In this document: piece by piece, positions 3,197 to 60,547 of the stretch | Numbering within the stretch: position 1 is the first letter of the stretch | How the letters are laid out: each line of letters opens with the position of its first letter | Program-made: the position numbers and the translations under genes | The notes under the pieces: model-generated | The model's database searches: none | What the model was told of the DNA's origin: nothing | The model's input: only the letters and a program-made list of their open reading frames with translations | NCBI RefSeq assembly: GCF_022846255.1 | Contig: NZ_AP025682.1 | Reading direction: 5' to 3' (one strand) | DNA from: Escherichia coli | Lineage (GTDB): Bacteria > Pseudomonadota > Gammaproteobacteria > Enterobacterales > Enterobacteriaceae | Length of the DNA: 64,000 bases

Positions 3197-3691
3197 ATGG
3201 TTACTTTCCACACCAATCACGGCGATATTGTCATCAAAACTTTTGACGATAAAGCACCTGAAACAGTTAAAAACTTCCTGGACTACTGCCGCGAAGGTTT
3301 TTACAACAACACCATTTTCCACCGTGTAATCAACGGCTTTATGATTCAGGGCGGCGGTTTTGAGCCGGGCATGAAACAAAAAACCACCAAAGACCCGATC
3401 AAAAACGAAGCCAATAACGGTCTGAAAAATACCCGTGGTACGCTGGCAATGGCCCGTACTCAGGCACCGCACTCTGCAACTGCACAGTTCTTCATCAACG
3501 TGGTTGATAACGACTTCCTGAACTTCTCTGGCGAAAGCCTGCAAGGTTGGGGTTACTGCGTGTTTGCTGAAGTGGTTGAAGGCATGGACGTGGTAGACAA
3601 AATCAAAGGTGTTGCAACCGGTCGTAGCGGTATGCACCAGGACGTGCCAAAAGAAGACGTTATCATTGAAAGCGTGACCGTTAGCGAGTAA
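3197..3691 (+). CDS. ppiB: Peptidyl-prolyl cis-trans isomerase B (cyclophilin)
   Basis: 164 aa [27 protein letters not shown]... cyclophilin fold. Confidence 0.97.
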
Positions 3692-3693
3692 TC

Positions 3694-4416
3694 GTGGCGA
3701 CACTCTTTATTGCAGATCTTCATCTCTGCGCGGAAGAACCGGCGATCACCGCCGGTTTTCTGCGTTTTTTAGCGGGGGAGGCCCGCAAGGCCGATGCGCT
3801 GTATATTCTTGGCGATCTGTTTGAAGCCTGGATCGGCGACGACGATCCCAACCCGCTCCATCGCCAGATGGCGGCAGCGATCAAAGCGGTGTCCGATTCC
3901 GGCGTTCCCTGTTATTTCATTCATGGCAACCGTGATTTTCTGCTCGGCAAACGCTTTGCCCGTGAAAGCGGCATGACGTTATTGCCGGAAGAAAAGGTGC
4001 TCGAACTTTATGGTCGTCGGGTGTTGATTATGCATGGCGACACGCTGTGCACCGATGACGCGGGTTATCAGGCTTTTCGTGCCAAAGTCCACAAACCCTG
4101 GCTGCAAACGCTATTCCTCGCCCTGCCGTTGTTTGTGCGCAAACGCATTGCCGCGCGAATGCGCGCGAACAGTAAAGAAGCCAACAGCAGTAAATCGCTG
4201 GCGATCATGGACGTTAACCAAAACGCGGTGGTCAGTGCGATGGAAAAACATCAGGTGCAATGGCTGATTCACGGGCATACCCATCGCCCGGCAGTACATG
4301 AACTTATCGCCAATCAGCAACCTGCTTTCCGCGTCGTGCTGGGTGCCTGGCATACGGAAGGTTCAATGGTGAAAGTCACGGCGGATGACGTTGAGCTGAT
4401 TCATTTTCCGTTTTAA
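3694..4416 (+). CDS. lpxH: UDP-2,3-diacylglucosamine pyrophosphohydrolase LpxH
   Basis: 240 aa calcineurin-like phosphoesterase (DLHL, GNRD, GHTH motifs); GTG start 3 nt after the ppiB stop. Confidence 0.93.
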
Positions 4417-4445
4417 ATACCCGCAACTTTGCTGATTTCACAGCC

Positions 4446-4461
4446 ACGCAACCGTTTTCCT
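4446..4461 (+). promoter_or_regulatory. Candidate PurR operator upstream of purEK
   Basis: acgcaaccgttttcct resembles the PurR box consensus (aCGCAAACGTTTtCnT) and lies ~70 nt upstream of the purE start. Confidence 0.5.
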
Positions 4462-4532
4462 TGCTCTCTTTCCGTGCTATTCTCTGTGCCCTCTAAAGCC
4501 GAGAGTTGTGCACCACAGGAGTTTTAAGACGC

Positions 4533-5042
4533 ATGTCTTCCCGCAATAATCCGGCGCGTGTCGCCATCGTGATGGGGTCCAAAAGCGACTGGGCTACCAT
4601 GCAGTTCGCCGCCGAAATCTTCGAAATCCTGAATGTCCCGCACCACGTTGAAGTGGTTTCTGCTCACCGCACCCCCGATAAACTGTTCAGCTTCGCCGAA
4701 AGCGCCGAAGAGAACGGTTATCAGGTGATTATTGCGGGCGCAGGCGGCGCAGCGCACCTGCCTGGCATGATTGCCGCCAAAACGCTGGTGCCGGTGCTGG
4801 GCGTGCCAGTACAGAGCGCCGCACTGAGCGGTGTCGATAGCCTCTACTCCATCGTACAAATGCCGCGCGGCATTCCGGTGGGTACGCTGGCGATTGGTAA
4901 AGCTGGCGCGGCAAACGCGGCGTTACTGGCAGCACAAATTCTTGCGACTCATGATAAAGAACTGCACCAGCGTCTGAATGAATGGCGCAAAGCACAAACT
5001 GATGAAGTGCTGGAAAACCCGGACCCGCGAGGTGCGGCATGA
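4533..5042 (+). CDS. purE: N5-carboxyaminoimidazole ribonucleotide mutase PurE
   Basis: [20 protein letters not shown]...; ATG at 4533 (the ORF-track start at 4506 is an upstream extension). Confidence 0.93.
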
Positions 5043-6106
5043 AACAGGTTTGCGTCCTCGGTAACGGGCAGTTAGGCCGTATGCTGCGTCAGGCAGGCGA
5101 ACCGTTAGGCATTGCTGTCTGGCCAGTCGGGCTGGACGCTGAACCGGCGGCGGTGCCTTTTCAACAAAGCGTGATTACCGCTGAGATAGAACGCTGGCCG
5201 GAAACCGCATTAACCCGCGAGCTGGCGCGCCATCCGGCCTTTGTGAACCGCGATGTGTTCCCGATTATTGCTGACCGTCTGACTCAGAAGCAGCTTTTCG
5301 ATAAGCTCCACCTGCCGACCGCACCGTGGCAGTTACTTTCCGAACACAGCGAGTGGCCTGCGGTGTTTGATCGTTTAGGTGAGCTGGCGATTGTTAAACG
5401 TCGCACTGGTGGCTATGACGGACGCGGTCAATGGCGTTTACGCGCCGATGAAACCGAACAGTTACCGGCTGAATGCTACGGCGAATGTATTGTCGAGCAG
5501 GGCATAAACTTCTCAGGTGAAGTGTCGCTGGTTGGCGCGCGCGGCTTTGATGGCAGCACCGTGTTTTATCCGCTGACGCATAACCTGCATCAGAACGGCA
5601 TTTTGCGCACCAGCGTCGCTTTCCCGCAGGCCAATGCACAGCAACAGGCGCAAGCTGAAGAGATGTTGTCGGCGATTATGCAGGAGCTGAGCTATGTGGG
5701 CGTGATGGCGATGGAGTGTTTTGTCACCCCACAAGGTCTGCTGATCAACGAACTGGCTCCGCGTGTGCATAACAGCGGTCACTGGACGCAAAACGGTGCC
5801 AGCATCAGCCAGTTTGAGCTACATCTGCGGGCAATTACCGATCTGCCGTTACCGCAACCAGTAGTGAATAATCCGTCGGTGATGATCAATCTGATTGGTA
5901 GCGATCTGAATTATGACTGGCTGAAACTGCCGCTTGTGCATCTGCACTGGTACGACAAAGAAGTCCGTCCGGGCCGTAAAGTGGGGCATTTGAATTTGAC
6001 CGACAGCGACACATCGCGTCTGACCGCGACGCTGGAAGCCTTAATCCCACTGCTGCCGCCGGAGTATGCCAGCGGCGTGATGTGGGCGCAGAGCAAGTTC
6101 AGTTAA
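5039..6106 (+). CDS. purK: N5-carboxyaminoimidazole ribonucleotide synthase PurK
   Basis: 355 aa ATP-grasp protein; start overlaps the purE stop (ATGA). Confidence 0.95.
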
Positions 6107-6123
6107 TTGATGCTCATTTTCTT

Positions 6124-6309
6124 GCCGGATGCGGCGTGAACGCCTTATCCGGCCTACCGTTCCAACACCGCCTGTAGGCCTGATAAGATGCGCCAGCATC
6201 GCATCAGGCATGGTGTGCCGATTGCCGCATGCGGCGTGAACGCCTTATCCGGCCTACCGTTCCAACACCGACTGTAGGCCTGATAAGACGCGCCAGCATC
6301 GCATCAGGC
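6124..6309. repeat. REP/BIME cluster; two tandem ~100 bp units
   Basis: gccggatgcggcgtgaacgccttatccggcctac and its inverted partner gtaggcctgataaga...gcatcaggc occur twice in tandem. Confidence 0.8.
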
Positions 6310-6338
6310 TAGATGTGCCAATTGCCTGGTGCCCATCA

Positions 6339-7232
6339 CTACAGCGAAATACAAGTCCCCGCTTCGCCCGCCAGCGTCTCTTCAATCCGCGATAACGCCC
6401 CAATCCACGCGGGTTTACCACGGCTTCTGACATAGCCACTCACCGCCGTTACCTTCGGCCCCATCGAACCATCGGCTTTGGCAAATGGCGCTAACTCATC
6501 CGGTGTGGCATGGCGAATGGCACGTTGCTGCGGCGTTCCCCAGTTTTCATATACCGCATCAGCATCGGTGAGGATCACCAGTCCATCGGCATTAATCTGC
6601 TCGGCGAGCAACGCAGCGGCGAGATCTTTATCAATCACCGCTTCACTCCCTGCCCCGTCTTCCGTCACAGGCACACCGCCGCCGCCACTGCAAATCACCA
6701 CATGCCCCTCTTTGAGCAACAACTCGATGGCTTCGCTGTCGAGAATTTTACGCGGTTGCGGAGACGCCACCACCCGGCGTAAATATTTACCATCACGTTT
6801 CATCTGCCAGCCGTAAGCCGCTTCCAGTGCCTCTTGTTCTTCTGGCTGATAAACCGGACCAATAAATTTCTCTGGCTGTAAAAACGCCGGATCATCAGGC
6901 GAAACCTCAATGCGCGTCAGCACCGTCGTGACAGGCGGCATCTGCGGCTGTGCGCTCAAGCTCTGCGCCAGCATATAGCCAATCATCCCCTGGCTTTCCG
7001 CCACCAGTACATCCAGCGGATACGGTTCTACCTCTTTCCACGCCAGATTCTGTAACGCCAGCAGCCCCACCTGCGGTCCGTTGCCGTGAACAATCGCCAG
7101 CCGATAAGAACGGGCCAGGCGCGCCAGCGCGGGTACAGCACTGGCAATATTGCGATATTGATTTTTTGCCGTCAGCGCCTCACCGCGCTGGAGTAAGGCG
7201 TTGCCCCCAAGAGCCACAACCAGTGTTTTCAT
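6339..7232 (-). CDS. ybcF: Carbamate kinase-like protein (allantoin/oxamate pathway)
   Basis: [18 protein letters not shown]... amino-acid kinase family; ATG at 7230-7232 (the ORF-track start at 7346 is an upstream extension). Confidence 0.9.
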
Positions 7233-8044
7233 GGTTTCCCTTGTAATAATTGTTGGCCAAGCCAGAACCCCAGCAGCGTATCGGCCCCTGACGTATGCCC
7301 CAGCGCCAGCAGCGAATCGATCGCCGCTGCGGTACGTTTCGGGCAACTCAGAGCATGAACAAAGTGCAGGAGTGGCGAGGCGAAATATCCTTGCGCGGCA
7401 TAACGTAAATAACTGACGCTCACCGCAGTGGTAACGAGTTGAAGATTGTCGGAACAGGCAAAAAACGGGCGACCGGAGCGCGCATCTAAAGCACCATAAT
7501 ACCAGGCCGCCAGCAGCATTCCGCTCAGCGTGTCATCATGACTTGGCGTTAATCCGGGGCCTTTACCCAGCCAGTGCCGCCAGTCGGTCTTAACGCCATT
7601 GAGCGCGGCCTGAAAACAGTGACGAAACTGGCGTAATTCAGCAGGCAGCGGATCGCTTGCCGCCAATGCCAGTGGCCCGAAAAGCCCGGTTTCCTCCGCG
7701 CGTTGCATCCATGCAACGGCAAGCGGTTGAGGATGCGCAGGCGGCGTAATACGTAGCAAACAATAACGCTGTGGCTGTTTAACCGTGAAACGCCCGAGAC
7801 GAATCCCTTGTGCCACAACCTGTGGTCGTTCATTGCCGCATAATCCACCGCATAACGCATCGAATTGCGCGCGGCGAAGCACCCATCCGCCGGGGCCGAA
7901 ACCACTCCCCTGACGATGCAGCGTTAACAGTTCGCCGCTTTCCGTCATCAGGTTAATCGCCCGCCGCCACACTCCCGCTAACCGCCAGGACTGGCGATAA
8001 TTCGGTGCGCTACGGCTGGCAAGTAGAGGATGGATGATCGTCAT
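7229..8044 (-). CDS. ylbF: YlbF, DUF2877 protein of the fdrA-ylbE-ylbF-ybcF operon
   Basis: [20 protein letters not shown]..., 271 aa; ATG at 8042-8044; stop overlaps the ybcF start. Confidence 0.85.
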
Positions 8045-8054
8045 TGTGCGTTCC

Positions 8055-9314
8055 TCAACCAATCCCCATGCTTTCAGCCAGTGCTTCCAGCGCCTGTTCA
8101 AAGCACGCCAGCGGTGCCCGCACGGTGCCTGCGCCAATCTGCCCGATCCCCGCCTCTTTATGGGCGATACCGGTATTGATGAGTGGCGTAATGCCGGTTT
8201 CTACCACGCGACGAATGTCCAGCCCCAGGCACGCCCCCTGGAAATCCCAGCCGGGGATCTGCAATTGCATATTGCGTTCAAGGTAAATTTCCGCCATCTC
8301 TTCAGATACCGCTCTGGCCGCTTCCATGCCACCCGCACCGACAAAGCGCGTTACGCCAGGCGCTGCGATCATTGCCGCACCTCCGATACCAAAGGTTTCG
8401 GTAATCGCGCTATCGCCCATATCCGGGTTCGCCTGCTCCTGCGAGAAGCCGGTGAAAAACAGACCTTGCGGAGTGTTTACAGGCGCAGTAAACCAGCGTT
8501 CACCCAGCCCGCTTACCCGAATCCCGAACATATTGCCGTTGCGGGTCATAGCCGTAACGATGCTGCCTGCGCGGATCATCGCGCCTGCATCCATCGCCGC
8601 CTTGCAGTAGGCCATCGCGAGATTGAGGAAGAACTGATCGGTCACGCTGAGGAAATCCATCACTTCGGCGATGTGCTGTTTATCATGATCGAGGCGAGCA
8701 ATTTGTGGGGCCAGCGCACGCATTAACAGTGCAGAGGAAGCAATATTGCGTTGATGGAACTCATCGCCCATGGTAATGCCCTGCGCCATCATTGCCGTGA
8801 GATCGATACCGCGCTCCATGCGCCCCAGCGCCGCGCTTAATACTGGCATTAACACATCGCGCATCCAGCGATGGCGAGTCAGGACATCTTCGCCGTAAGC
8901 GCCAAAACGCATCACTTTGCCGATACCTTCGTTGAGGTTGCAGTACGCCCGGTTGCCGTCGGTCACGTTCTCGACCACCAGCATCGGCATACTGGCAGAA
9001 GTAATGCCACCCATTGGCCCGACGGCATTCACATGGTGACAAGGAATGAAGTTCACTTCCCCCTGCTCCAGTATTGCCAGCGCCTGCGCTTCATCTTTCG
9101 CCCAGCCTTCGAACAGACATGCGCCCACGCACGCCCCTTTCATGGGTCCGGTCATCTCCTGCCAGCGCATTGGCGGCCCGGCGTGAAGCAGTGTTTTGCC
9201 CTTGTTTAGTTCGCTGATAAGTGAAGAAGCCGGTTGCACATCCAGCCAGTGTGGACGAGCGCGACGAATTTGTTCGATAACCGCAGCATTGGCTTGCGCC
9301 ACTGATGTAAACAT
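8055..9314 (-). CDS. ylbE: YlbE, DUF1116 protein; intact 419 aa
   Basis: Uninterrupted 419 aa ORF between fdrA and ylbF. Confidence 0.85.
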
Positions 9315-9323
9315 GGGAACCCC

Positions 9324-10991
9324 TTATTGCAAACGTTCTAATAAACGAGCCAGTTTTTTATTGCCGCCGGCGACTGGCGACCATTGGTAATGCACAACCG
9401 GTTTGCTGGCGCTTTGTAGCTCCAGCGCAAAGCTGCGTAATCCGATGTTAATCACGGCGACGTTTTCCAGTAATGACGGTGTGTGTTGCTGTGTGGCAGG
9501 CGAGAGCGGATGAATTAATGCCGCCGCCAGCAAGGTGGCTTCCGGTAGCGAACTCACTACCGCGATCCCCGCATCTTCCAGCGTGGCAATTTGCTGCGAG
9601 CGACATTGCGGATCACGTTCAGTGCCTGTCACCGTGGCAATGGCATACAGTGGTTGATTGTCTGAACGCGCGGCACAGGCTTTTTGCCAGGCGCTCACCA
9701 GCGAGGCGGCAGGATCGGCGGTCGCACCGAAGCCAATCACGACATCAAGCAGCAACACGCGCACTTGCGGTTTAGCGCCGAGATCGGCAATTAACAGGTT
9801 GCGTAAGGTCGGGTCGATCATCGGATGGGGACGCCCGACGGTGTAAAAATCATCGCCCAGGTCGAGGATCTGATGTCCGTCGGCGTCCAGCATCATGCCA
9901 TGTTGATGGGTATCGTCGGCTTCCACGCCAAGGTGTCCGGCAAGTAATCCCGCCGCTTCAGCAGCCAGCGTACCGCCGGTATACAAACCGCAAATAAATC
10001 CGCTGCTGACAGGCGCTATCGCGTTACGTCGCGCAGTGACGCGTGAAAGCAGACAAGCCAGACGAGCGGCCTCATCCAGCGAGGAGGCAAACCAGACATT
10101 CTCGTCGCGGGCCACCGCTGGGGTATAACCTAAAAACAGCGCCACCGTCGGTTTGCCAGTTGCTTTCATGGCATTAACAATTTTCAGACGCACAGTTTCG
10201 GCAGGTGGTTTTGAAACAAATGCCAGCACTTCGCTTTTCTCGTCTGCACTGAGCATTTCCAGCGCCGTTAGCGCACTGATGCCGCCCACTTCACGGCTGA
10301 GATCGCGCCCGCCAAGACCAATCGCGTGAGTAATTCCCTCCCCTGCCAGCGCAATCTGTGAGCACAGCTCCTGAATCCCGGTACCGGAAGCGCCTATGAC
10401 GCCAATGTTGCCTTCCGGCATCACGTTAGCAAAAGCCAGCGGCGTGGCGGCAATCATCGACGTACCGCAGTCTGGCCCCATCACCAGCAAGCCTTTTTCC
10501 CGCGCGCGCGTTTTAAGTTGGATTTCATCTTCCAGCGTGACGTTATCGGAGAACATCATCACGTTGAGGTTGCGATCCAGCGCCTGGTTCGCCAGCTCCG
10601 CCGCATACTCACCAGCCACTGAAATCAGCGCCAGATTGGCATCGGGTAATTTCTGACTGGCACTGTCCCAGCGACGCACCTGCGTCAACGCCTGGCTGCT
10701 GCCTGAACCCTGCGCCAGTTGTTTTAGCGCCTCTTCAAGCTGCTGCATAACCGCCTGCGCGATCCCCGCATCCGCCGCTTCGCTACGAATTGCCACGCAA
10801 ATATCGTTCGGCGTGGCGTTATTAAAATCGTCATGCCAGAAACCTGTAGTATCTAATAACGCTTTATTGGCGGGCGTACCCATCATTACGGAAACATCAT
10901 CAACATTTTCTGATTCGCTGAGTTTTCGTGAAATAATCATTAAACTGACCGAATCCTGAAAACACCCTTTTTTAATAAAGGCGTGGATCAT
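9324..10991 (-). CDS. fdrA: FdrA, succinyl-CoA-ligase-alpha-like protein
   Basis: 555 aa with CoA-binding/ligase-like Gly-rich segments; ATG at 10989-10991. Confidence 0.9.
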   Translation of the reverse strand: MIHAFIKKGCFQDSVSLMIISRKLSESENVDDVSVMMGTPANKALLDTTGFWHDDFNNATPNDICVAIRSEAADAGIAQAVMQQLEEALKQLAQGSGSSQALTQVRRWDSASQKLPDANLALISVAGEYAAELANQALDRNLNVMMFSDNVTLEDEIQLKTRAREKGLLVMGPDCGTSMIAATPLAFANVMPEGNIGVIGASGTGIQELCSQIALAGEGITHAIGLGGRDLSREVGGISALTALEMLSADEKSEVLAFVSKPPAETVRLKIVNAMKATGKPTVALFLGYTPAVARDENVWFASSLDEAARLACLLSRVTARRNAIAPVSSGFICGLYTGGTLAAEAAGLLAGHLGVEADDTHQHGMMLDADGHQILDLGDDFYTVGRPHPMIDPTLRNLLIADLGAKPQVRVLLLDVVIGFGATADPAASLVSAWQKACAARSDNQPLYAIATVTGTERDPQCRSQQIATLEDAGIAVVSSLPEATLLAAALIHPLSPATQQHTPSLLENVAVINIGLRSFALELQSASKPVVHYQWSPVAGGNKKLARLLERLQ

Positions 10992-11307
10992 AACAACTCC
11001 TTAAAAATTGCACCCATGGCAATTGCACGAGCAGTGTTAATGTGGCGATTACGGTATCGATGACAACGAGTAAATAAGGTGATGAATATCACACGTGGAT
11101 TATTAACAAAAGAATTCAAATAACCGCCAGACTATTACGCGTTATTTTTTAATAAGCATGGTTGTTTTAAAAACCAGGTTAAAAGCACGAAGATTATCAA
11201 ATAAATTCTAACTATATTTTTTTGCCTGTCTGGATCACATAATCCAGATATTTTCCCTGTATGTTAATTGCAGTCATGCTTCACACCGTCGTTAAAAAGG
11301 AAGACAG

Positions 11308-12357
11308 ATGAAAATCAGTCGGGAAACACTCCACCAGCTAATCGAGAATAAACTCTGCCAGGCTGGGTTAAAACGTGAGCACGCTGCAACCGTGGCTGAA
11401 GTATTGGTTTACGCCGATGCCAGAGGGATCCACTCTCATGGCGCGGTGCGCGTTGAATACTACGCCGAACGCATTTCAAAAGGCGGCACCAACCGCGAAC
11501 CGGAGTTTCGTCTTGAGGAAACCGGACCGTGCTCGGCAATTTTACATGCCGACAATGCCGCCGGACAGGTCGCGGCGAAAATGGGTATGGAACATGCCAT
11601 CAAAACCGCCCAGCAAAAAGGCGTTGCGGTGGTCGGTATCAGCCGGATGGGTCACAGCGGCGCAATCTCTTATTTTGTGCAGCAGGCTGCCCGCGCCGGA
11701 TTGATTGGCATTTCGCTGTGCCAGTCCGATCCAATGGTGGTGCCGTTTGGCGGCGCGGAAATTTACTACGGCACTAACCCACTGGCCTTTGCCGCGCCGG
11801 GAGAAGGCGACGAGATCCTTACCTTTGATATGGCGACTACCGTACAGGCATGGGGAAAAGTGCTCGACGCCCGCTCGCGCAATATGTCTATCCCGGATAC
11901 CTGGGCAGTCGATAAAAACGGTGCACCAACAACCGATCCGTTCGCGGTACATGCTCTGCTCCCCGCCGCTGGGCCGAAAGGGTATGGCCTGATGATGATG
12001 ATTGACGTCCTCTCAGGCGTCTTACTCGGCTTACCGTTCGGGCGACAGGTTAGTTCGATGTATGACGATTTACACGCCGGGCGTAATTTGGGGCAATTAC
12101 ATATAGTTATTAACCCGAACTTTTTCTCCTCCAGCGAATTATTCCGTCAACATCTTAGCCAGACCATGCGCGAATTAAATACCATTACCCCCGCGCCCGG
12201 TTTTAATCAGGTTTATTATCCCGGACAGGATCAGGATATTAAACAACGCAAAGCCGCCGTCGAAGGCATCGAAATTGTTGATGATATTTACCAGTATTTA
12301 ATTTCCGACGCGCTTTATAACACGTCATACGAAACGAAAAATCCCTTTGCGCAATAA
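11308..12357 (+). CDS. allD: Ureidoglycolate dehydrogenase
   Basis: 349 aa MKISRETLHQLIENKL... (Ldh_2 family); RBS aaggaag upstream. Confidence 0.93.
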   Translation: MKISRETLHQLIENKLCQAGLKREHAATVAEVLVYADARGIHSHGAVRVEYYAERISKGGTNREPEFRLEETGPCSAILHADNAAGQVAAKMGMEHAIKTAQQKGVAVVGISRMGHSGAISYFVQQAARAGLIGISLCQSDPMVVPFGGAEIYYGTNPLAFAAPGEGDEILTFDMATTVQAWGKVLDARSRNMSIPDTWAVDKNGAPTTDPFAVHALLPAAGPKGYGLMMMIDVLSGVLLGLPFGRQVSSMYDDLHAGRNLGQLHIVINPNFFSSSELFRQHLSQTMRELNTITPAPGFNQVYYPGQDQDIKQRKAAVEGIEIVDDIYQYLISDALYNTSYETKNPFAQ

Positions 12358-14410: not shown

Positions 14411-14452
14411 GTCATACCACTCGCCTGATTATTTTTAGCTATGTTGGATTTT

Positions 14453-14479
14453 GCCACGGTTTATACCGTGGCTTTTTTT
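14453..14479 (+). terminator. Rho-independent terminator of the allDCE operon
   Basis: gccacggt-ttat-accgtggc hairpin followed by TTTTTTT. Confidence 0.55.
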
Positions 14480-14494
14480 GTAGTCAATTCAGGT

Positions 14495-27440: not shown

Positions 27441-27466
27441 TGGGGGATTCTGTGCACGCTGTTCAT

Positions 27467-27668
27467 GCCGGATGCGGCGTGAACGCCTTATCCAGCCTAC
27501 AGGTGAGTGCTGTTTCGTAGGCATGATAAGACGCGCCTGCGTCGCATCTGGCATCGGCGCACAACTGCCAGATGCGGCGTAAACGCCTTATCCGGCCTAC
27601 ACAATCTTGCAAAATCAATATATTGCTCGATCCTCGTAGGCCTGATAAGCGAAGCGCATCAGGCAATC
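27467..27668. repeat. REP/BIME cluster
   Basis: Several gccggatgcggcgt(g/a)aacgccttatccggcctac-type palindromic units in alternating orientation. Confidence 0.8.
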
Positions 27669-27680
27669 TAACGCCTGTCA

Positions 27681-36227: not shown

Positions 36228-36312
36228 TGCGACGCTGACGCGTCTTATCATGCCTACAAAATATGCCCGAATCGTAGGCCAGATAAGGCGCTTGCGCCGC
36301 ATCCGGCATATA
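36222..36312. repeat. REP element pair
   Basis: gcctgatgcgacgctgacgcgtcttatcatgcctac ... gtaggccagataaggcgcttgcgccgcatccggc. Confidence 0.75.
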
Positions 36313-36329
36313 GCCGAGTAGAGGCAAAA

Positions 36330-36692
36330 TTACTCTTCCCGGCCTTTACCCATACTTTTTTGGTCTTCATCCGGATAGTGTTTTTTTAGATATTCCAGGA
36401 CGTTTTTATTGACCTTGTGTTGGGTATACACCCACCCTTTCCAGTAATCAGGTTGGTCCAGGTAAACTTCTGGCGGAATGGTGAAATCAGAAAGCGTTAA
36501 CCATTCGGCTAACAGATCGGGGTTTCGTTTCTGGATCAACTGCAACAGCATGATCAGCGACATGGCAGAGGCAGGAGCCGTACTATCGCCGCTTAAATAC
36601 TTCCACACTGTCGACCGGTTCGAACGAAAAAGGATCGGTAGCAATGCCCGGTCCAGATTCATTTCATTAAAAATCTTCTCAAATTCATTCAT
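36330..36692 (-). CDS. Hypothetical 120-aa protein, possible Cro/C1-like HTH; not recognised as a K-12 gene
   Basis: Clean ORF with caggaaa RBS 7 nt upstream of the ATG; the segment RSTVWKYLSGDSTAPASAMSLIMLLQL resembles an XRE-type recognition helix; divergent from the adhesin gene. Confidence 0.55.
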   Translation of the reverse strand: MNEFEKIFNEMNLDRALLPILFRSNRSTVWKYLSGDSTAPASAMSLIMLLQLIQKRNPDLLAEWLTLSDFTIPPEVYLDQPDYWKGWVYTQHKVNKNVLEYLKKHYPDEDQKSMGKGREE

Positions 36693-37057
36693 TTAAATTT
36701 CCTGCCTGGCGTAAACCTCTTAAAAATTGAGATTTATCAAAGAAACGCATTTTAGCACACATCAGGAACCGCTTCACGTTTAGTCCAGAAACAGAATTTA
36801 TTTCGCTTATCAAAACAAGTCTTTACTCTTTTTTACATTGAAAGAGCACGAAATAATTTCCTTTTTTATTTATATAAGAAACTATTTTTGTTTCTTATTG
36901 GTGGTGTTTACGCTTACACAATACAAAAATGCGCTTTACATCACACAAATGGCGGCGTAGATTTCGATCAAATTGCAACGCAGTTTATTTCTTAAAACAA
37001 TATTATTTGTTTCTTATAGAAACATTAATGCGACTTATTTTGAACAAGAGAAAATGA

Positions 37058-38074
37058 ATGAAAACTGTAAACGTAGCTTTACTGGCACTCATAATTTCAG
37101 CAACATCCAGCCCTGTTGTTTTAGCTGGTGATACCATTGAAGCGGCGGCAACAGAGCTTTCAGCCATTAACTCCGGCATGTCGCAATCGGAGATTGAGCA
37201 GAAGATTACCCGCTTTTTAGAACGCACAGACAACAGCCCCGCTGCGTATACCTATTTGACTGAACATCACTACATCCCTTCTGAAACACCTGATACCACT
37301 CAGACTCCCACTGTCCAGACAGATCCTGACGCAGGACAAAAAACCGTTGCCGCTACAGGTGATGTACAGACAACCGCCCGTTATCAGAGCATGATCAACG
37401 CCCGACAGTCTGCGGTAACTGACGCCCAGCAAACGCAAATTACAGAGCAACAGGCGCAGATCGTAGCCACACAAAAAACGCTCGCCGCGACTGGAGATAC
37501 GCAAAATACCGCGCATTATCAGGAGATGATTAATGCCAGGCTGGCGGCTCAAAATGAGGCTAATCAGCGCACTACCACGGAACAAGGGCAGAAAATGAAT
37601 GCACTGACAACCGATGTGGCAGCACAACAGCAAAAAGAAAGGGCTCAATACGATAAACAAATGCAAAGTCTGGCGCAGAAGTCTGTCCAGGCACATGAAC
37701 AAATTGACAGCCTGTCACAAGACGTAACCCAAACGCATCAGCAGTTAAGCAACACGCAAAAACGAGTAGCGGATAATAGCCAACAGATTACTACGCTCAA
37801 TAACCATTTCAGTTCGCTGAAAAACGAAGTTGAGGACAACCGTAAAGAAGCCAATGCGGGAACTGCATCAGCCATCGCTATCGCCTCACAACCACAGGTG
37901 AAAACCGGTGACGTGATGATGGTGTCAGCGGGAGCGGGAACGTTCAACGGTGAATCTGCGGTGTCTGTAGGAACATCTTTTAATGCCGGAACGCATACGG
38001 TACTTAAAGCAGGTATTTCTGCGGATACACAATCTGATTTCGGTGCGGGTGTCGGCGTGGGATATTCGTTCTAA
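37058..38074 (+). CDS. Short head-less trimeric autotransporter adhesin (type Vc, YadA-like C-terminal anchor)
   Basis: Signal peptide MKTVNVALLALIISATSSPVVLA|GD; Q/T-rich coiled-coil stalk with a 45-aa tandem repeat; C-terminus ...SAVSVGTSFNAGTHTVLKAGISADTQSDFGAGVGVGYSF fits the 4-strand YadA anchor ending in an aromatic residue. Confidence 0.75.
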   Translation: MKTVNVALLALIISATSSPVVLAGDTIEAAATELSAINSGMSQSEIEQKITRFLERTDNSPAAYTYLTEHHYIPSETPDTTQTPTVQTDPDAGQKTVAATGDVQTTARYQSMINARQSAVTDAQQTQITEQQAQIVATQKTLAATGDTQNTAHYQEMINARLAAQNEANQRTTTEQGQKMNALTTDVAAQQQKERAQYDKQMQSLAQKSVQAHEQIDSLSQDVTQTHQQLSNTQKRVADNSQQITTLNNHFSSLKNEVEDNRKEANAGTASAIAIASQPQVKTGDVMMVSAGAGTFNGESAVSVGTSFNAGTHTVLKAGISADTQSDFGAGVGVGYSF

Positions 38075-38127
38075 TTTTAACAGCAATTTCTTATTCGCAA
38101 TTTTCCGCACATTATTTAAGGTTAACA

Positions 38128-38550
38128 ATGATGAATAGCTCCATTAAATCGTTTTCCCTGCTGGCGGTTATATTACTGGCTGGCTGTAGCTCACCCGCTT
38201 CCCGCATCGCAGATTGCCAGGCGCAGGGCGTCAGTCATGACACCTGTTACCTCGCAGAACAGCAGCGTCAGTCGGCTATTTTAAGTGCATCCGAAGCGCA
38301 GGCATTTAAAAATGCAGATGCCGCACAACATGCCCAGGCGGCAAAGAAAGCCATTTATAAAGGATTTGGCATGACCTTTAGAATGAGCAGTAAAAACTTT
38401 GCTTATCTCAATGATTCATTATGTGCAATTGATGAAGACAATAAAGATGCCACTGTTTATCAGTCAGGTCTGTATAACGTCATTGTTTATCACCATACGG
38501 GAAAAGTCGCCTTAATGAAGGAAGGTCAGTTTGTGGGTTATTTAAAATGA
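38128..38550 (+). CDS. Hypothetical lipoprotein (lipobox LLAGC, +2 Ser)
   Basis: MMNSSIKSFSLLAVILLAG|C signal/lipobox; aagg RBS; lies 53 nt downstream of the adhesin gene on the same strand. Confidence 0.65.
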   Translation: MMNSSIKSFSLLAVILLAGCSSPASRIADCQAQGVSHDTCYLAEQQRQSAILSASEAQAFKNADAAQHAQAAKKAIYKGFGMTFRMSSKNFAYLNDSLCAIDEDNKDATVYQSGLYNVIVYHHTGKVALMKEGQFVGYLK

Positions 38551-38750
38551 AGGAGCAAAGGAAAATCCCCCTGACGCATATTATGATTATCGGTGCGTTT
38601 ATTTTTGCCTTCTTGCAAGTGGTGTTATTAGCCTCCCTGGTTCACGCTGTGAATGTTAACAACGAAATCCAGGAAGGCTTATTTCAGTCGGGGCGCATTA
38701 TGGTAGAAAGTTTGCAGCATATTCTTTCGGTGCAAACGGAGATTAACTGA
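38547..38750 (+). CDS. Hypothetical 67-aa single-pass membrane protein
   Basis: Start overlaps the lipoprotein stop (ATGA); one hydrophobic helix IMIIGAFIFAFLQVVLLASLV; stop lies 3 nt from the cueR stop. Confidence 0.5.
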   Translation: MKEQRKIPLTHIMIIGAFIFAFLQVVLLASLVHAVNVNNEIQEGLFQSGRIMVESLQHILSVQTEIN

Positions 38751-38753
38751 TTT

Positions 38754-44279: not shown

Positions 44280-44707
44280 TTGGTATTTACTTAATGCGTT
44301 TGTGAGATCCAGTTCTTGTTGCGCTCCTTTTATGAGTAATGCCATATAAAGTGACTGGCGCAAGGAGCGCGCAGGGGGCGGCCAATCGCCGCCGCCCCCT
44401 GCACCCCCGGGCTCTGGCGAACAAAATCGCCGCTGCGCGGTACCCTCGGCTTATCCCTTGCGGCTACCGGGTCGGGCGCGAGGTAACATCCCTGTAAAAC
44501 GCGCCCTCAGCCCACATCCATGTGGGCTGCCCCGGCCTTCAGGGAACGCCTCGGCGATTTTGACGCCACCAACACCCGTGCAGTCTTTCGTTTCAAAGCA
44601 AAAACAATTTTTCGATCATATTTAAGCTACCACTGAACAAGCCTCATAACTCCATTTGCGCCATCCCTCCCCGCGCGCTAGCATGATATTTCACAAAGGG
44701 AGGTCGT

Positions 44708-45502
44708 ATGGATCTGTTGTACCGGGTAAAAACGCTTTGGGCCGCGCTGCGCGGTAATCATTACACCTGGCCTGCTATCGATATCTCTCTTCCCGGCAAT
44801 CGCCATTTTCATCTGATTGGCAGTATTCATATGGGCAGCCACGATATGGCTCCCCTGCCCACCCGTTTGCTCAAAAAGCTCAAAAACGCCGATGCGCTGA
44901 TCGTCGAGGCGGATGTTTCCACCAGCGATACGCCTTTTGCTAATTTGCCTGCCTGCGAGGCGCTGGAAGAGCGCATTAGCGAGGAGCAATTACAAAACCT
45001 GCAGCACATTAGCCAGGAGATGGGCATTTCTCCGTCGCTCTTTTCTACCCAACCGCTGTGGCAAATCGCGATGGTTCTTCAGGCGACGCAGGCGCAAAAA
45101 CTGGGGCTGCGGGCAGAATACGGTATCGATTACCAGCTATTGCAGGCGGCGAAGCAACAACATAAACCCGTGATTGAACTGGAAGGGGCAGAAAACCAGA
45201 TTGCCATGTTGCTCCAGCTCCCTGACAACGGACTGGCGCTGCTGGACGATACGCTGACCCACTGGCACACCAATGCACGGTTGCTGCAACAAATGATGAG
45301 CTGGTGGCTGAATGCGCCGCCGCAAAATAATGAAATAACGCTGCCTAATACGTTCAGTCAGTCGCTGTACGATGTGCTGATGCATCAGCGAAATCTCGCC
45401 TGGCGGGACAAATTATGCGCCATGCCGCCGGGGCGCTATGTGGTCGCAGTCGGTGCACTACACCTGTATGGAGAAGGGAATTTGCCGCAGATGTTGCGCT
45501 AA
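44708..45502 (+). CDS. ybaP: TraB-family protein YbaP
   Basis: 264 aa MDLLYRVKTLWAALRGNHYTWPAIDISLPGN...; strong RBS aagggagg. Confidence 0.9.
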   Translation: MDLLYRVKTLWAALRGNHYTWPAIDISLPGNRHFHLIGSIHMGSHDMAPLPTRLLKKLKNADALIVEADVSTSDTPFANLPACEALEERISEEQLQNLQHISQEMGISPSLFSTQPLWQIAMVLQATQAQKLGLRAEYGIDYQLLQAAKQQHKPVIELEGAENQIAMLLQLPDNGLALLDDTLTHWHTNARLLQQMMSWWLNAPPQNNEITLPNTFSQSLYDVLMHQRNLAWRDKLCAMPPGRYVVAVGALHLYGEGNLPQMLR

Positions 45503-45584
45503 AAAAATGGCCAATATCGCTATTGGCCCGTCAAAGAGGAATTTCATATTTTTATTATTATGCCGTCACTTTAAGCGACGGTGT
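45501..45584 (-). ncRNA. chiX: ChiX (MicM/SroB) small regulatory RNA
   Basis: Minus-strand sequence acaccgtcgcttaaagtgacgg...ttgacgggccaatagcgatattggccattttttt matches the remembered ChiX sequence, including the terminator hairpin and U-tail, in the ybaP-ybaK spacer. Confidence 0.8.
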
Positions 45585-58615: not shown

Positions 58616-60547
58616 TCAAATGGGGCGGATACTGTCTTCATCCAGCTCCGCATCGAAGAACCGACGCAGGGTCTGAATATTATTATCCGCAATAATGGAC
58701 TCGCGCGCCTGCGCAAGTTTTTCTTCGTATATCGCCTGACGCCATTCCAGCGGCGTACGCACCGCGGGATTATCATCTTCAACGATAGTCAGTTCAACCG
58801 TTGAACCTTTTAACGTGCTCAACGCTTCAGCCAGTTTTTGCTGTGCACCGCGGTTGTTCAAATGCCGCTGAGAGGAGCGCAAATGCAGACATACTGCGTT
58901 GTCGCTCTCCTCTTTCCAGGCATTTAACGCCACCTGTTCGACCAGTTTTGGTAGCGAAAGTTGACTCACCTGTGCCGCCCACGGGTCGCGCTCAATGGCT
59001 TCTGCCGCCAGCTTCGCCGCCAGTTCCGGCGTTTTTTCATGTTCCAGCGCTTTTTTCAGCGCCTTCGGCGTGGCGACCACTTCTTTTTGCTGCATCACTG
59101 GAGTGGTCGCCTTCCAGCGATACGCTTCTTTTTTAGCTGGCGCTTTTTCCAGCGCCGATGGCACCGGGCGCGCCTGAACACGATCGGTGACCGAAGCCAG
59201 TCTTTCCAGCGCAGCGTTATTCACCGGCCGCGCGCGGGTAGCGGCTGCCGGTTCACTCTTTTTTGCTTTGGTTGCTCCCTGCACGCGCTGCAACTGCTGG
59301 CGCGCCGCCAGCACCTGGCTGGTGGTTTCCGGGAGCGGTACAGTCGGTGCCTGCTGCGGCGCTGATTGCGGTTGCGGCGGCACCTGTGTTGGCGTCATTA
59401 CTGCCGTTGGCGCGACGGGCGCAAAGGACTGGCGTGGCACTTCTGGCTCAGGCAGCGGCATACGCGGATGGAACGCCAGCGCGCGAAGCAGCGTCATCTC
59501 AACGCCCATACGGCGGTCTGGCGCATACGGTAATTCTTTGCGACCAATCAACAGCGTCTGATAGTAAAGCTGAATATCCGTCGGCGGTATGGTGCGCGCC
59601 AGTTCACGCATCCGCAGCTCGATGGCAGCCATATCGTTGCCAAGTGCAGCAGGCGAAAGTTGTACCATCGCAATACGATGCAACAGACCGAGCATTTCCA
59701 CCAGCAACGCTTCCCACTCGATACCACGGGCAGCGGCTTCATTAATCAGCGCCATTACGCGCTCGCCGTTGGCCTCGACCATCGCTTCAACCAGCGACAG
59801 CGCCTGATCATCGTCAAGCGTACCCAGCATCGCACTGACCGCCTGGGTTGAAACCTGGCCGTCACCGCTGGCAATCGCCTGGTCGGTCAGACTTAAGGCA
59901 TCTCGCAGGCTGCCTTCAGCGGCGCGTGCCAACAATTGCAGCGCCCGCGGCTCGTGAGCGATATGTTCTTCGTTGAGGATGTGCTCAAGCTGATGGCGAA
60001 TTTGCTCGACATCCAGCGCCTTGAGATGAAATTGCAGACAGCGTGACAAAATCGTCACCGGCAATTTCTGCGGATCGGTCGTCGCCAGCAAAAACTTAAC
60101 GTGCTCTGGCGGCTCTTCAAGGGTTTTTAACAGTGCGTTAAAGCTGTGGCGCGACAGCATATGCACTTCGTCGATCAGATAAACTTTGAAACGACCACGC
60201 GCCGGAGCGTACTGGACGTTATCCAGCAGGTCGCGAGTGTCTTCAACTTTAGTGCGCGAGGCGGCGTCGATTTCAATCAGATCGACAAAGCGCCCCTGCT
60301 CGATTTCACGACAGTTATCGCACACGCCGCACGGCGTCGCGGTAATGCCGGTTTCGCAGTTTAGCCCCTTCGCCAGCAGTCGGGCGATAGAGGTTTTTCC
60401 GACGCCACGGGTACCGGAAAAAAGATAAGCATGATGAATACGCCCTAACGACAAGCCGTTCGCCAGTGCGGTCAGCACATGTTCCTGGCCGACGACGTCA
60501 GCAAAGGTTTGTGGGCGCCATTTTCGGGCTAAGACCTGATAACTCAT
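58616..60547 (-). CDS. dnaX: DNA polymerase III subunits tau and gamma
   Basis: MSYQVLARKWRPQTFADVVGQEHV... AAA+ clamp-loader subunit; ATG at 60545-60547. Confidence 0.95.
   Translation of the reverse strand: MSYQVLARKWRPQTFADVVGQEHVLTALANGLSLGRIHHAYLFSGTRGVGKTSIARLLAKGLNCETGITATPCGVCDNCREIEQGRFVDLIEIDAASRTKVEDTRDLLDNVQYAPARGRFKVYLIDEVHMLSRHSFNALLKTLEEPPEHVKFLLATTDPQKLPVTILSRCLQFHLKALDVEQIRHQLEHILNEEHIAHEPRALQLLARAAEGSLRDALSLTDQAIASGDGQVSTQAVSAMLGTLDDDQALSLVEAMVEANGERVMALINEAAARGIEWEALLVEMLGLLHRIAMVQLSPAALGNDMAAIELRMRELARTIPPTDIQLYYQTLLIGRKELPYAPDRRMGVEMTLLRALAFHPRMPLPEPEVPRQSFAPVAPTAVMTPTQVPPQPQSAPQQAPTVPLPETTSQVLAARQQLQRVQGATKAKKSEPAAATRARPVNNAALERLASVTDRVQARPVPSALEKAPAKKEAYRWKATTPVMQQKEVVATPKALKKALEHEKTPELAAKLAAEAIERDPWAAQVSQLSLPKLVEQVALNAWKEESDNAVCLHLRSSQRHLNNRGAQQKLAEALSTLKGSTVELTIVEDDNPAVRTPLEWRQAIYEEKLAQARESIIADNNIQTLRRFFDAELDEDSIRPI
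59224..59264 (-). promoter_or_regulatory. dnaX programmed -1 ribosomal frameshift site (slippery heptamer plus downstream stem-loop)
   Basis: mRNA-sense A AAA AAG (plus-strand cttttttg at 59258-59264) at about codon 428, followed in the mRNA by a GC-rich hairpin (59224-59250) and a -1 frame stop after KKE. Confidence 0.8.

Follow-up and report, generated by a model that had tools for sequence, protein, structure and literature searches.

Based on direct comparison with annotated genomes and with the literature, which settles the identity of the operon, we propose that the locus at positions 6339-10991 of the window (the whole stretch of 64,000 nucleotides of Escherichia coli DNA analyzed here, from contig NZ_AP025682.1) is almost certainly the ordinary, already characterized E. 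coli allFGHK operon for anaerobic allantoin breakdown, with ylbE in its intact, wild-type form. Nothing in the sequence speaks against this identification. Work in MG1655 has already characterized the operon together with its enzymes and regulators, and the coding part of the locus holds nothing new. In E. coli, MG1655 included, an uninterrupted ylbE of 419 aa is the wild type, because the frameshift attributed to MG1655 was a one-base fault, namely one G missing from a run of five in the pre-2013 reference, which has since been corrected.

Organization of the operon and comparison with MG1655

The four genes of the operon are:
9324..10991, minus strand: fdrA (allF), 555 aa, from ATG to TAA; oxamic transcarbamylase subunit whose fold resembles succinyl-CoA synthetase alpha
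8055..9314, minus strand: ylbE (allG), 419 aa, from ATG to TGA, uninterrupted; oxamic transcarbamylase subunit
7229..8044, minus strand: ylbF (allH), 271 aa; oxamic transcarbamylase subunit
6339..7232, minus strand: ybcF (allK), 297 aa; catabolic carbamate kinase

An ORF check places fdrA, ylbE, ylbF and ybcF all on the minus strand and wholly inside 6339-10991, with four uninterrupted reading frames and no internal stop in any of them. A preliminary description of this DNA had noted tight packing, with gaps of 9-10 nt or overlapping stop and start codons, and the ORF coordinates confirm it: fdrA and ylbE are separated by 9 nt (9323-9315), ylbE and ylbF by 10 nt (8054-8045), and the ATG of ybcF shares the four nucleotides ATGA at 7232-7229 with the stop of ylbF. 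Its reading of ylbE as an uninterrupted 419-aa ORF likewise stands, there being no internal stop in 9314-8055. Shine-Dalgarno-like motifs lie ahead of all four starts (AAGGAG, AAGGGG, GAGGAA and AAGGGA). Tight spacing like that of the allFGHK operon is typical of bacterial operons, and the spacing in the window is the normal layout of this one. Short gaps, the ATGA overlap and a Shine-Dalgarno motif for each gene would fit translational coupling, which might serve to balance the amounts of the subunits; judging from these junctions, the co-translation of the four genes put forward earlier is plausible.

Aligned with the current MG1655 genome (NC_000913.3), the operon is 4653 nt long in both, with 0 indels, 117 substitutions and 97.5% nucleotide identity. 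The proteins are identical in length and differ at 17 of their 1,542 residues in total (nine in FdrA, two in YlbE when compared with YP_009029994.1, and three each in YlbF and YbcF), while dN/dS between the window and MG1655 is 0.076 for fdrA, 0.033 for ylbE and 0.040 for ylbF, and lies between 0.03 and 0.08 for all four genes. The locus is collinear with MG1655 551,398-543,189, in the order purK-ybcF-ylbF-ylbE-fdrA-allD-allC, the four co-oriented genes adjoining allDCE and diverging from it. Gene order, lengths, spacing and neighbors (purK; allD-allC) are those of K-12 MG1655 allFGHK (b0518, b4572, b0520 and b0521), from which the window differs only by lineage-level substitutions, 15 promoter changes among them, and by a longer downstream REP cluster. 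The operon is found at 80% coverage or more in 5,407 of 5,426 complete E. coli genomes.

The ylbE frameshift in K-12 records

The site in question was located by aligning the window with NC_000913.3 and with the W3110 record NC_007779.1:
9059..9063, minus strand: G5 homopolymer, nucleotides 252-256 of ylbE; site of the legacy K-12 ‘frameshift’, G4 in old records

The preliminary description had given ylbE as annotated with a frameshift in the MG1655 reference, a statement that is out of date: in NC_000913.3 the gene is intact and 1260 nt long (b4572, YP_009029994.1). Alignment with MG1655 revealed neither indels nor a stop that had been missed, and the MG1655 frameshift itself traces to the old reference. 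The legacy pseudogene allele (ylbE_1/ylbE_2; NC_007779.1) is the same gene at the same position as the ylbE of the window, but its run is one G shorter (G4 instead of G5); in the G4 form a stop follows after 86 codons and the remaining protein lies in another frame. This truncating allele was looked for in the window and is not there, the run at 9063-9059 being G5. The ylbE of the W3110 record combines G4 with a silent change at nucleotide 114. In a survey of 5,417 complete E. coli genomes, at least 3,814 match the G5 form exactly, and among the matches listed an exact G4 match occurs in four, namely the legacy record of W3110 and three K-12 assemblies that are nearly identical and of almost the same length (the band at 99% or above in the G4 search held five records, of which four were identified among the matches listed). 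An intact ylbE is the rule across E. coli.

Two readings would give the G4 allele biological weight. If K-12 MG1655 truly had a ylbE pseudogene, the intact gene of the window would be functionally distinct and its locus a better template for functional work, as had been suggested earlier. Such a view can draw on the ‘frameshifted’ label that ylbE still bears in the RefSeq record of W3110 and in three more K-12-type records, on older literature that counts ylbE among the lesions of the MG1655 reference (PMC4759930), and on the mention of a ylbE frameshift in the DH5-alpha genome announcement (PMC5105096). It is nevertheless highly improbable in light of the intact gene in NC_000913.3 and the G5 run of the independent K-12 assemblies MG1655 CP032667, C600 and ER1709. 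Moreover, wild-type MG1655 converts allantoin to oxamate and its delta-allG mutant does not, active AllFGH has been cloned from MG1655 DNA (PMC11326118), and published work has taken the frameshift as a probable sequencing error or a discrepancy between stock and reference (PMC3364942, PMC4404585, PMC4759930). As MG1655 ylbE is intact, and as MG1655 itself was the source of the purified enzyme and the parent of the deletion mutants, the window locus is no better a template.

The other reading, which is less far-fetched but which we still consider unlikely, takes G4 as a genuine mutation specific to the W3110 lineage, and perhaps to other K-12 sublines, such that K-12 would be polymorphic for functional allG. 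G4 does persist in the W3110 record, NCM3722 is said to have a gene ‘restored’ relative to the old reference (PMC3045373), and NEB 5-alpha has been reported with a ylbE frameshift. Yet the W3110 record also has the silent difference at nucleotide 114, and the same two ylbE sites, the G run and nucleotide 114, are those at which MG1655 stocks depart from the old reference (PMC4404585), which points to a common legacy sequence more than to a separate mutation. Resequencing papers present these two differences as variation seen among MG1655 stocks (PMC3364942, PMC3045373, PMC4404585, PMC4759930). Apart from W3110, the G4 records listed (CIT, LIM and CAR) have the site at the same coordinates as W3110 or adjacent ones; this, together with the 4,639,673 bp length of CIT, suggests reference-guided assembly. 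Furthermore, a miscall between G4 and G5 in a homopolymer is a classic sequencing error. We prefer the one-base fault in the old reference. The K-12 ‘ylbE pseudogene’ calls for caution, being a legacy annotation still carried by the W3110 record and by a few reference-like assemblies; it should not be taken for biology and gives no ground for choosing another template strain.

Family relationships of the four proteins

FdrA matches NCBIfam NF004760 at 1038 bits (curated cut-off 433, as are those that follow) and the PDB entry 3DMY, ‘Protein fdrA’, at E=9e-303, and additionally matches the Pfam CoA_binding and Ligase_CoA domains. YlbE matches Pfam PF06545 ‘AllG’ at 326.7 bits (cut-off 27), with a homologue of solved structure in PDB 3CLQ (E=1e-111), and YlbF matches PF11392 ‘AllH’ at 102.9 bits (cut-off 25), a sequence search for a solved structure of the latter returning none. 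No NCBIfam model matches either YlbE or YlbF, although Pfam matches both. YbcF matches the NCBIfam carbamate kinase equivalog NF006926 at 619.6 bits (cut-off 416) and carbamate kinases in PDB, for example 8CRV at E=3e-89. YbcF resembles the ArcC-type kinases that serve the arginine deiminase pathway along its full length, in both equivalog models and solved structures, but sits in the allantoin cluster and not in an arc operon, and its carbamoyl phosphate comes from oxalurate while theirs comes from citrulline (PMC9843812).

FdrA, YlbE and YlbF have no Pfam or NCBIfam match to the transcarbamylase families (aspartate/ornithine carbamoyltransferase domains). With the classical transcarbamylases, namely ATCase PyrB, OTCase ArgI/ArgF and YgeW, AllFGH has in common the reaction type, reversible carbamoyl transfer to or from carbamoyl phosphate; those enzymes are unrelated in sequence to AllF, AllG and AllH, and have one catalytic chain where the AllFGH enzyme has three different subunits (PMC11326118). 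Residues ~110-290 of FdrA align weakly (E 1e-12 to 1e-4) to alpha chains of the succinyl-CoA synthetase alpha/ATP-citrate lyase family, and FdrA has the two CoA-related domains, but the NCBIfam models for the synthetase alpha chain stay far below the cut-off (53.6 against 336), and published experiments found no succinyl-CoA synthetase activity of FdrA. This domain content, the weak similarity to the synthetase alpha chain, the RefSeq name, which often is still ‘acyl-CoA synthetase FdrA’, and a role put forward in the CanOE paper would be in line with FdrA being an acyl-CoA synthetase or an oxamate:CoA ligase working downstream of some unidentified transcarbamylase, with YlbE and YlbF unrelated and of unknown function. 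We give this very little credence, given that purified AllF-AllG-AllH is itself the oxamic transcarbamylase and that all three genes are required for oxamate. The D296Y variant of FdrA, which leads to more oxamate and succinate (PMC8550087), is absent from the window, where residue 296 is D.

Function and regulation

By orthology with MG1655, AllF, AllG and AllH of the window would together constitute the oxamic transcarbamylase, converting oxalurate and phosphate to oxamate and carbamoyl phosphate, and AllK would act as the catabolic carbamate kinase, using carbamoyl phosphate and ADP to yield ATP and carbamate, and then NH3 and CO2. A single transcript, starting at a promoter between allD and allF, is expected to cover all four genes; AllS (allantoin) and ArcA (anaerobiosis) would turn this promoter on. 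In MG1655, mutants, complementation and purified AllFGH have demonstrated oxamic transcarbamylase activity and the need for each of allF, allG and allH in oxamate formation (PMC11326118); in K-12, the kinetics of YbcF and the co-transcription of the operon by RT-PCR have been reported (PMC9843812), as have reporter assays and EMSA for AllS and ArcA (PMC12535856). The preliminary description’s carbamoyl-transfer and carbamate-kinase module of allantoin catabolism is thereby established by experiment for the MG1655 orthologues (PMC11326118, PMC9843812). Consensus scans of 6050-11350 returned internal promoter-like and terminator-like matches no more often than in shuffled sequence, and are therefore uninformative on the boundaries of the operon.

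Flanking regions

Two noncoding segments border the operon:
10992..11307, no strand assigned: divergent allD/allF intergenic region with the allF promoter, 316 nt, length as in MG1655
6122..6326, no strand assigned: REP/BIME cluster, two units of ~100 nt each, lying between ybcF and purK on the downstream side of the operon

The fragments bound in K-12 span -203/-144 for AllS and -142/-83 for ArcA (PMC12535856). All 15 substitutions relative to K-12 in the allD/allF region fall within 97 nt at -200 to -104 of the allF ATG (window 11191-11095), a stretch covered by the pair of EMSA fragments (-203 to -83), with none in the other 219 nt. We considered this clustering as something unusual and rejected it: the promoter allele is present at 99% identity or above in 911 of 5,338 genomes, about one-sixth of E. 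coli, and identity among alleles declines without a break as far as that of K-12 (95.3%), which points to ordinary lineage variation. That the allele alters the strength or the conditions of induction of the oxamate branch in the genomes sharing it is conceivable, but we regard it as quite unlikely.

At the other end, Tandem Repeats Finder describes the REP/BIME cluster as two copies with a period of 100 and a 93% match, and the REP-derived Rfam family naRNA4 matches 6177-6254. The ybcF-purK intergenic region that contains it is 232 nt long in the window, compared with 194 nt in MG1655.

Organization of the operon

Re-reading the ORFs and junctions in the window bore out the coordinates and layout that the preliminary description gave for the fdrA-ylbE-ylbF-ybcF (allF-allG-allH-allK) operon, which comprises four successive ORFs on the minus strand within 6339-10991:

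10991-9324, minus strand, fdrA, 555-aa ORF
9314-8055, minus strand, ylbE, 419-aa ORF with no internal stops
8044-7229, minus strand, ylbF, 271-aa ORF
7232-6339, minus strand, ybcF, 297-aa ORF

The fdrA/ylbE junction is a 9-nt gap (TAAGGGGTTCCCATG), the ylbE/ylbF junction a 10-nt gap (TGAGGAACGCACAATG), and ylbF and ybcF overlap by 4 nt (ATGA). A Shine-Dalgarno-like motif precedes every downstream start, lying on or adjoining the stop codon of the upstream gene. The short junctions make translational coupling of these genes plausible. Between ybcF and purK lies an intergenic region (232 nt, as against 194 nt in MG1655) with two tandem REP/BIME units of ~100 nt (6122-6326, 93% match) and an Rfam naRNA4 match at 6177-6254.

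The ylbE frameshift is probably a matter of legacy records

The intact ylbE had been contrasted with a counterpart annotated as frameshifted in MG1655, and the locus was accordingly proposed as a better template for functional work; the contrast is obsolete and the proposal unsupported, as the current MG1655 record (NC_000913.3) carries an intact 1,260-nt CDS (b4572, YP_009029994.1). It is the W3110 record (NC_007779.1) in which ylbE measures 1,259 nt and is still annotated as frameshifted. Aligned, the two genes differ only by a silent G/A difference at nt 114 and by the length of a G run at nt 252-256, which has five residues in MG1655 (G5) and four in W3110 (G4). With G4, frame 0 ends after 86 codons and the remaining protein lies in another frame; these two pieces correspond to the former ylbE_1 and ylbE_2 segments. 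In the window the run is G5 (9063-9059).

When 5,417 genomes were searched for exact matches to a 64-nt probe carrying G4, the matches listed came from four: W3110, CIT, LIM and CAR. The corresponding G5 probe matched exactly in 3,814 genomes, most of the others differing by point substitutions only, and G5 is present in independent K-12 assemblies (an MG1655 re-sequence, C600 and ER1709). Since the G4 sites of CIT, LIM and CAR have coordinates equal or adjacent to that of W3110, and CIT, at 4,639,673 bp, has its ylbE marked as frameshifted, the evidence points to these three being reference-like assemblies. The G4 gene lies at 3582-4840 of the locus taken from NC_007779.1 and at 1280-2538 of the one taken from NZ_CP026028.1.

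We consider G4 in the W3110, CIT, LIM and CAR RefSeq records to be a likely legacy or reference-guided artefact propagated into public annotation. That it is instead a real mutation of the W3110 lineage is improbable, as both the shared nt-114 difference and the reference-like character of the remaining G4 records favor a legacy error. That MG1655 truly lacks a functional ylbE is refuted by the intact CDS in NC_000913.3, by the oxamate phenotypes of MG1655 mutants and the activity of purified AllF-AllG-AllH (PMC11326118). The literature agrees with the record and genome comparisons, a ylbE+ allele having been described in MG1655-type and NCM3722 strains (PMC4759930, PMC3045373). Given the intact MG1655 gene, the rarity of G4 and this agreement, the MG1655 frameshift is to be taken as a sequencing artefact, at any rate as far as the relevant reference is concerned, an outcome that the preliminary description had named as fatal to its contrast.

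Function and protein families

The locus is already known, and the functional interpretation initially offered for it, while correct, has been published for the K-12 orthologs (PMC11326118, PMC9843812). In MG1655, little or no oxamate is formed from allantoin once allF, allG or allH has been deleted, and only allFGH together restores its formation; the purified AllF-AllG-AllH proteins show oxamic transcarbamylase activity (oxalurate + Pi <-> oxamate + carbamoyl phosphate; Kim & Kim 2024, PMC11326118). YbcF/AllK is a catabolic carbamate kinase, and RT-PCR demonstrated co-transcription of all four genes (Kim & Kim 2022, PMC9843812). The allF promoter is activated by AllS and ArcA under anaerobiosis with allantoin (Kim & Kim 2025), and in EMSA the two regulators bound within the -203/-144 and -142/-83 fragments (PMC12535856). 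Based on its near-identity to K-12, the allele in the window would be expected to share these enzyme activities and co-transcription, and may share AllS/ArcA activation. The old reading of FdrA as an "acyl-CoA synthetase" is contradicted by the published biochemistry.

Profile matches comprise Pfam PF06545 "AllG" for ylbE (326.7 bits), PF11392 "AllH" for ylbF (102.9 bits), CoA_binding and Ligase_CoA together with NCBIfam NF004760 for fdrA (1038 bits, cut-off 433), and the carbamate-kinase equivalog NF006926 for ybcF (619.6 bits, cut-off 416). Neither Pfam nor NCBIfam revealed sequence resemblance to the ATCase/OTCase fold in any AllF, AllG or AllH subunit. Sequence searches of solved structures recovered FdrA itself (3DMY), a YlbE homolog (3CLQ) and several carbamate kinases matching the ybcF product, and none for YlbF.

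Conservation and the allD-allF promoter region

Of 5,426 complete E. coli genomes searched, 5,407 contain the 4,653-nt operon block at no less than 80% coverage, with its genes annotated as fdrA, ylbE, ylbF and ybcF. The window is collinear with MG1655 (folD, purEK, the operon, then allDCE and onward), and the operon is identical in length in both, with 117 substitutions and no indels. These amount to 9, 2, 3 and 3 amino acid differences in fdrA, ylbE, ylbF and ybcF, respectively; the corresponding dN/dS values (0.076, 0.033, 0.040 and 0.049) indicate strong purifying selection on all four genes, strongest on ylbE.

The allD-allF intergenic region is likewise equal in length to its MG1655 counterpart (316 nt), and its 15 substitutions are all confined to the stretch from -200 to -104 relative to the allF ATG (window 11095-11191), inside the K-12 AllS and ArcA EMSA fragments, with 116 nt and 103 nt of identical sequence on either side. 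Such clustering has a chance probability of about 5e-6 in a uniform-placement simulation. This promoter allele is nevertheless common, with matches of at least 99% identity in 911 complete genomes and a continuous gradation from there to the allele of K-12 (95.3%); it represents lineage variation and not a novelty.

Other features of the window

The ~7.3-kb MG1655 segment rhsD-ybbC-ylbH-ybbD-ylbI-ylbG (522,833-530,125) is missing from the window, being replaced between selU and ybbP (27447-27678) by REP/BIME-type repeats spanning about 230 nt, in which Rfam naRNA4 matches at 27520-27597. The MG1655 ybaQ region (508,151-508,877, 726 nt) also has no counterpart, and the copA/ybaP interval (44280-44636) holds about 360 nt of unrelated sequence with no convincing ORF. 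The STnc480 (14417-14483) and sroB/ChiX (45501-45584) sRNAs and the dnaX programmed frameshift element (59219-59283) are syntenic as expected. Between ybbJ and cueR lies a 2.5-kb insertion relative to MG1655 (36228-38753), which includes a 120-aa ORF on the opposite strand (36330-36692), a 140-aa protein whose N-terminus resembles that of a lipoprotein (38128-38550) and a hydrophobic 67-aa ORF (38547-38750), these three products having no Pfam match. It also encodes a 338-aa secreted coiled-coil protein (37058-38074) that ends in a YadA-like membrane anchor (PF03895, E=1e-11) and has the look of a short trimeric-autotransporter adhesin.
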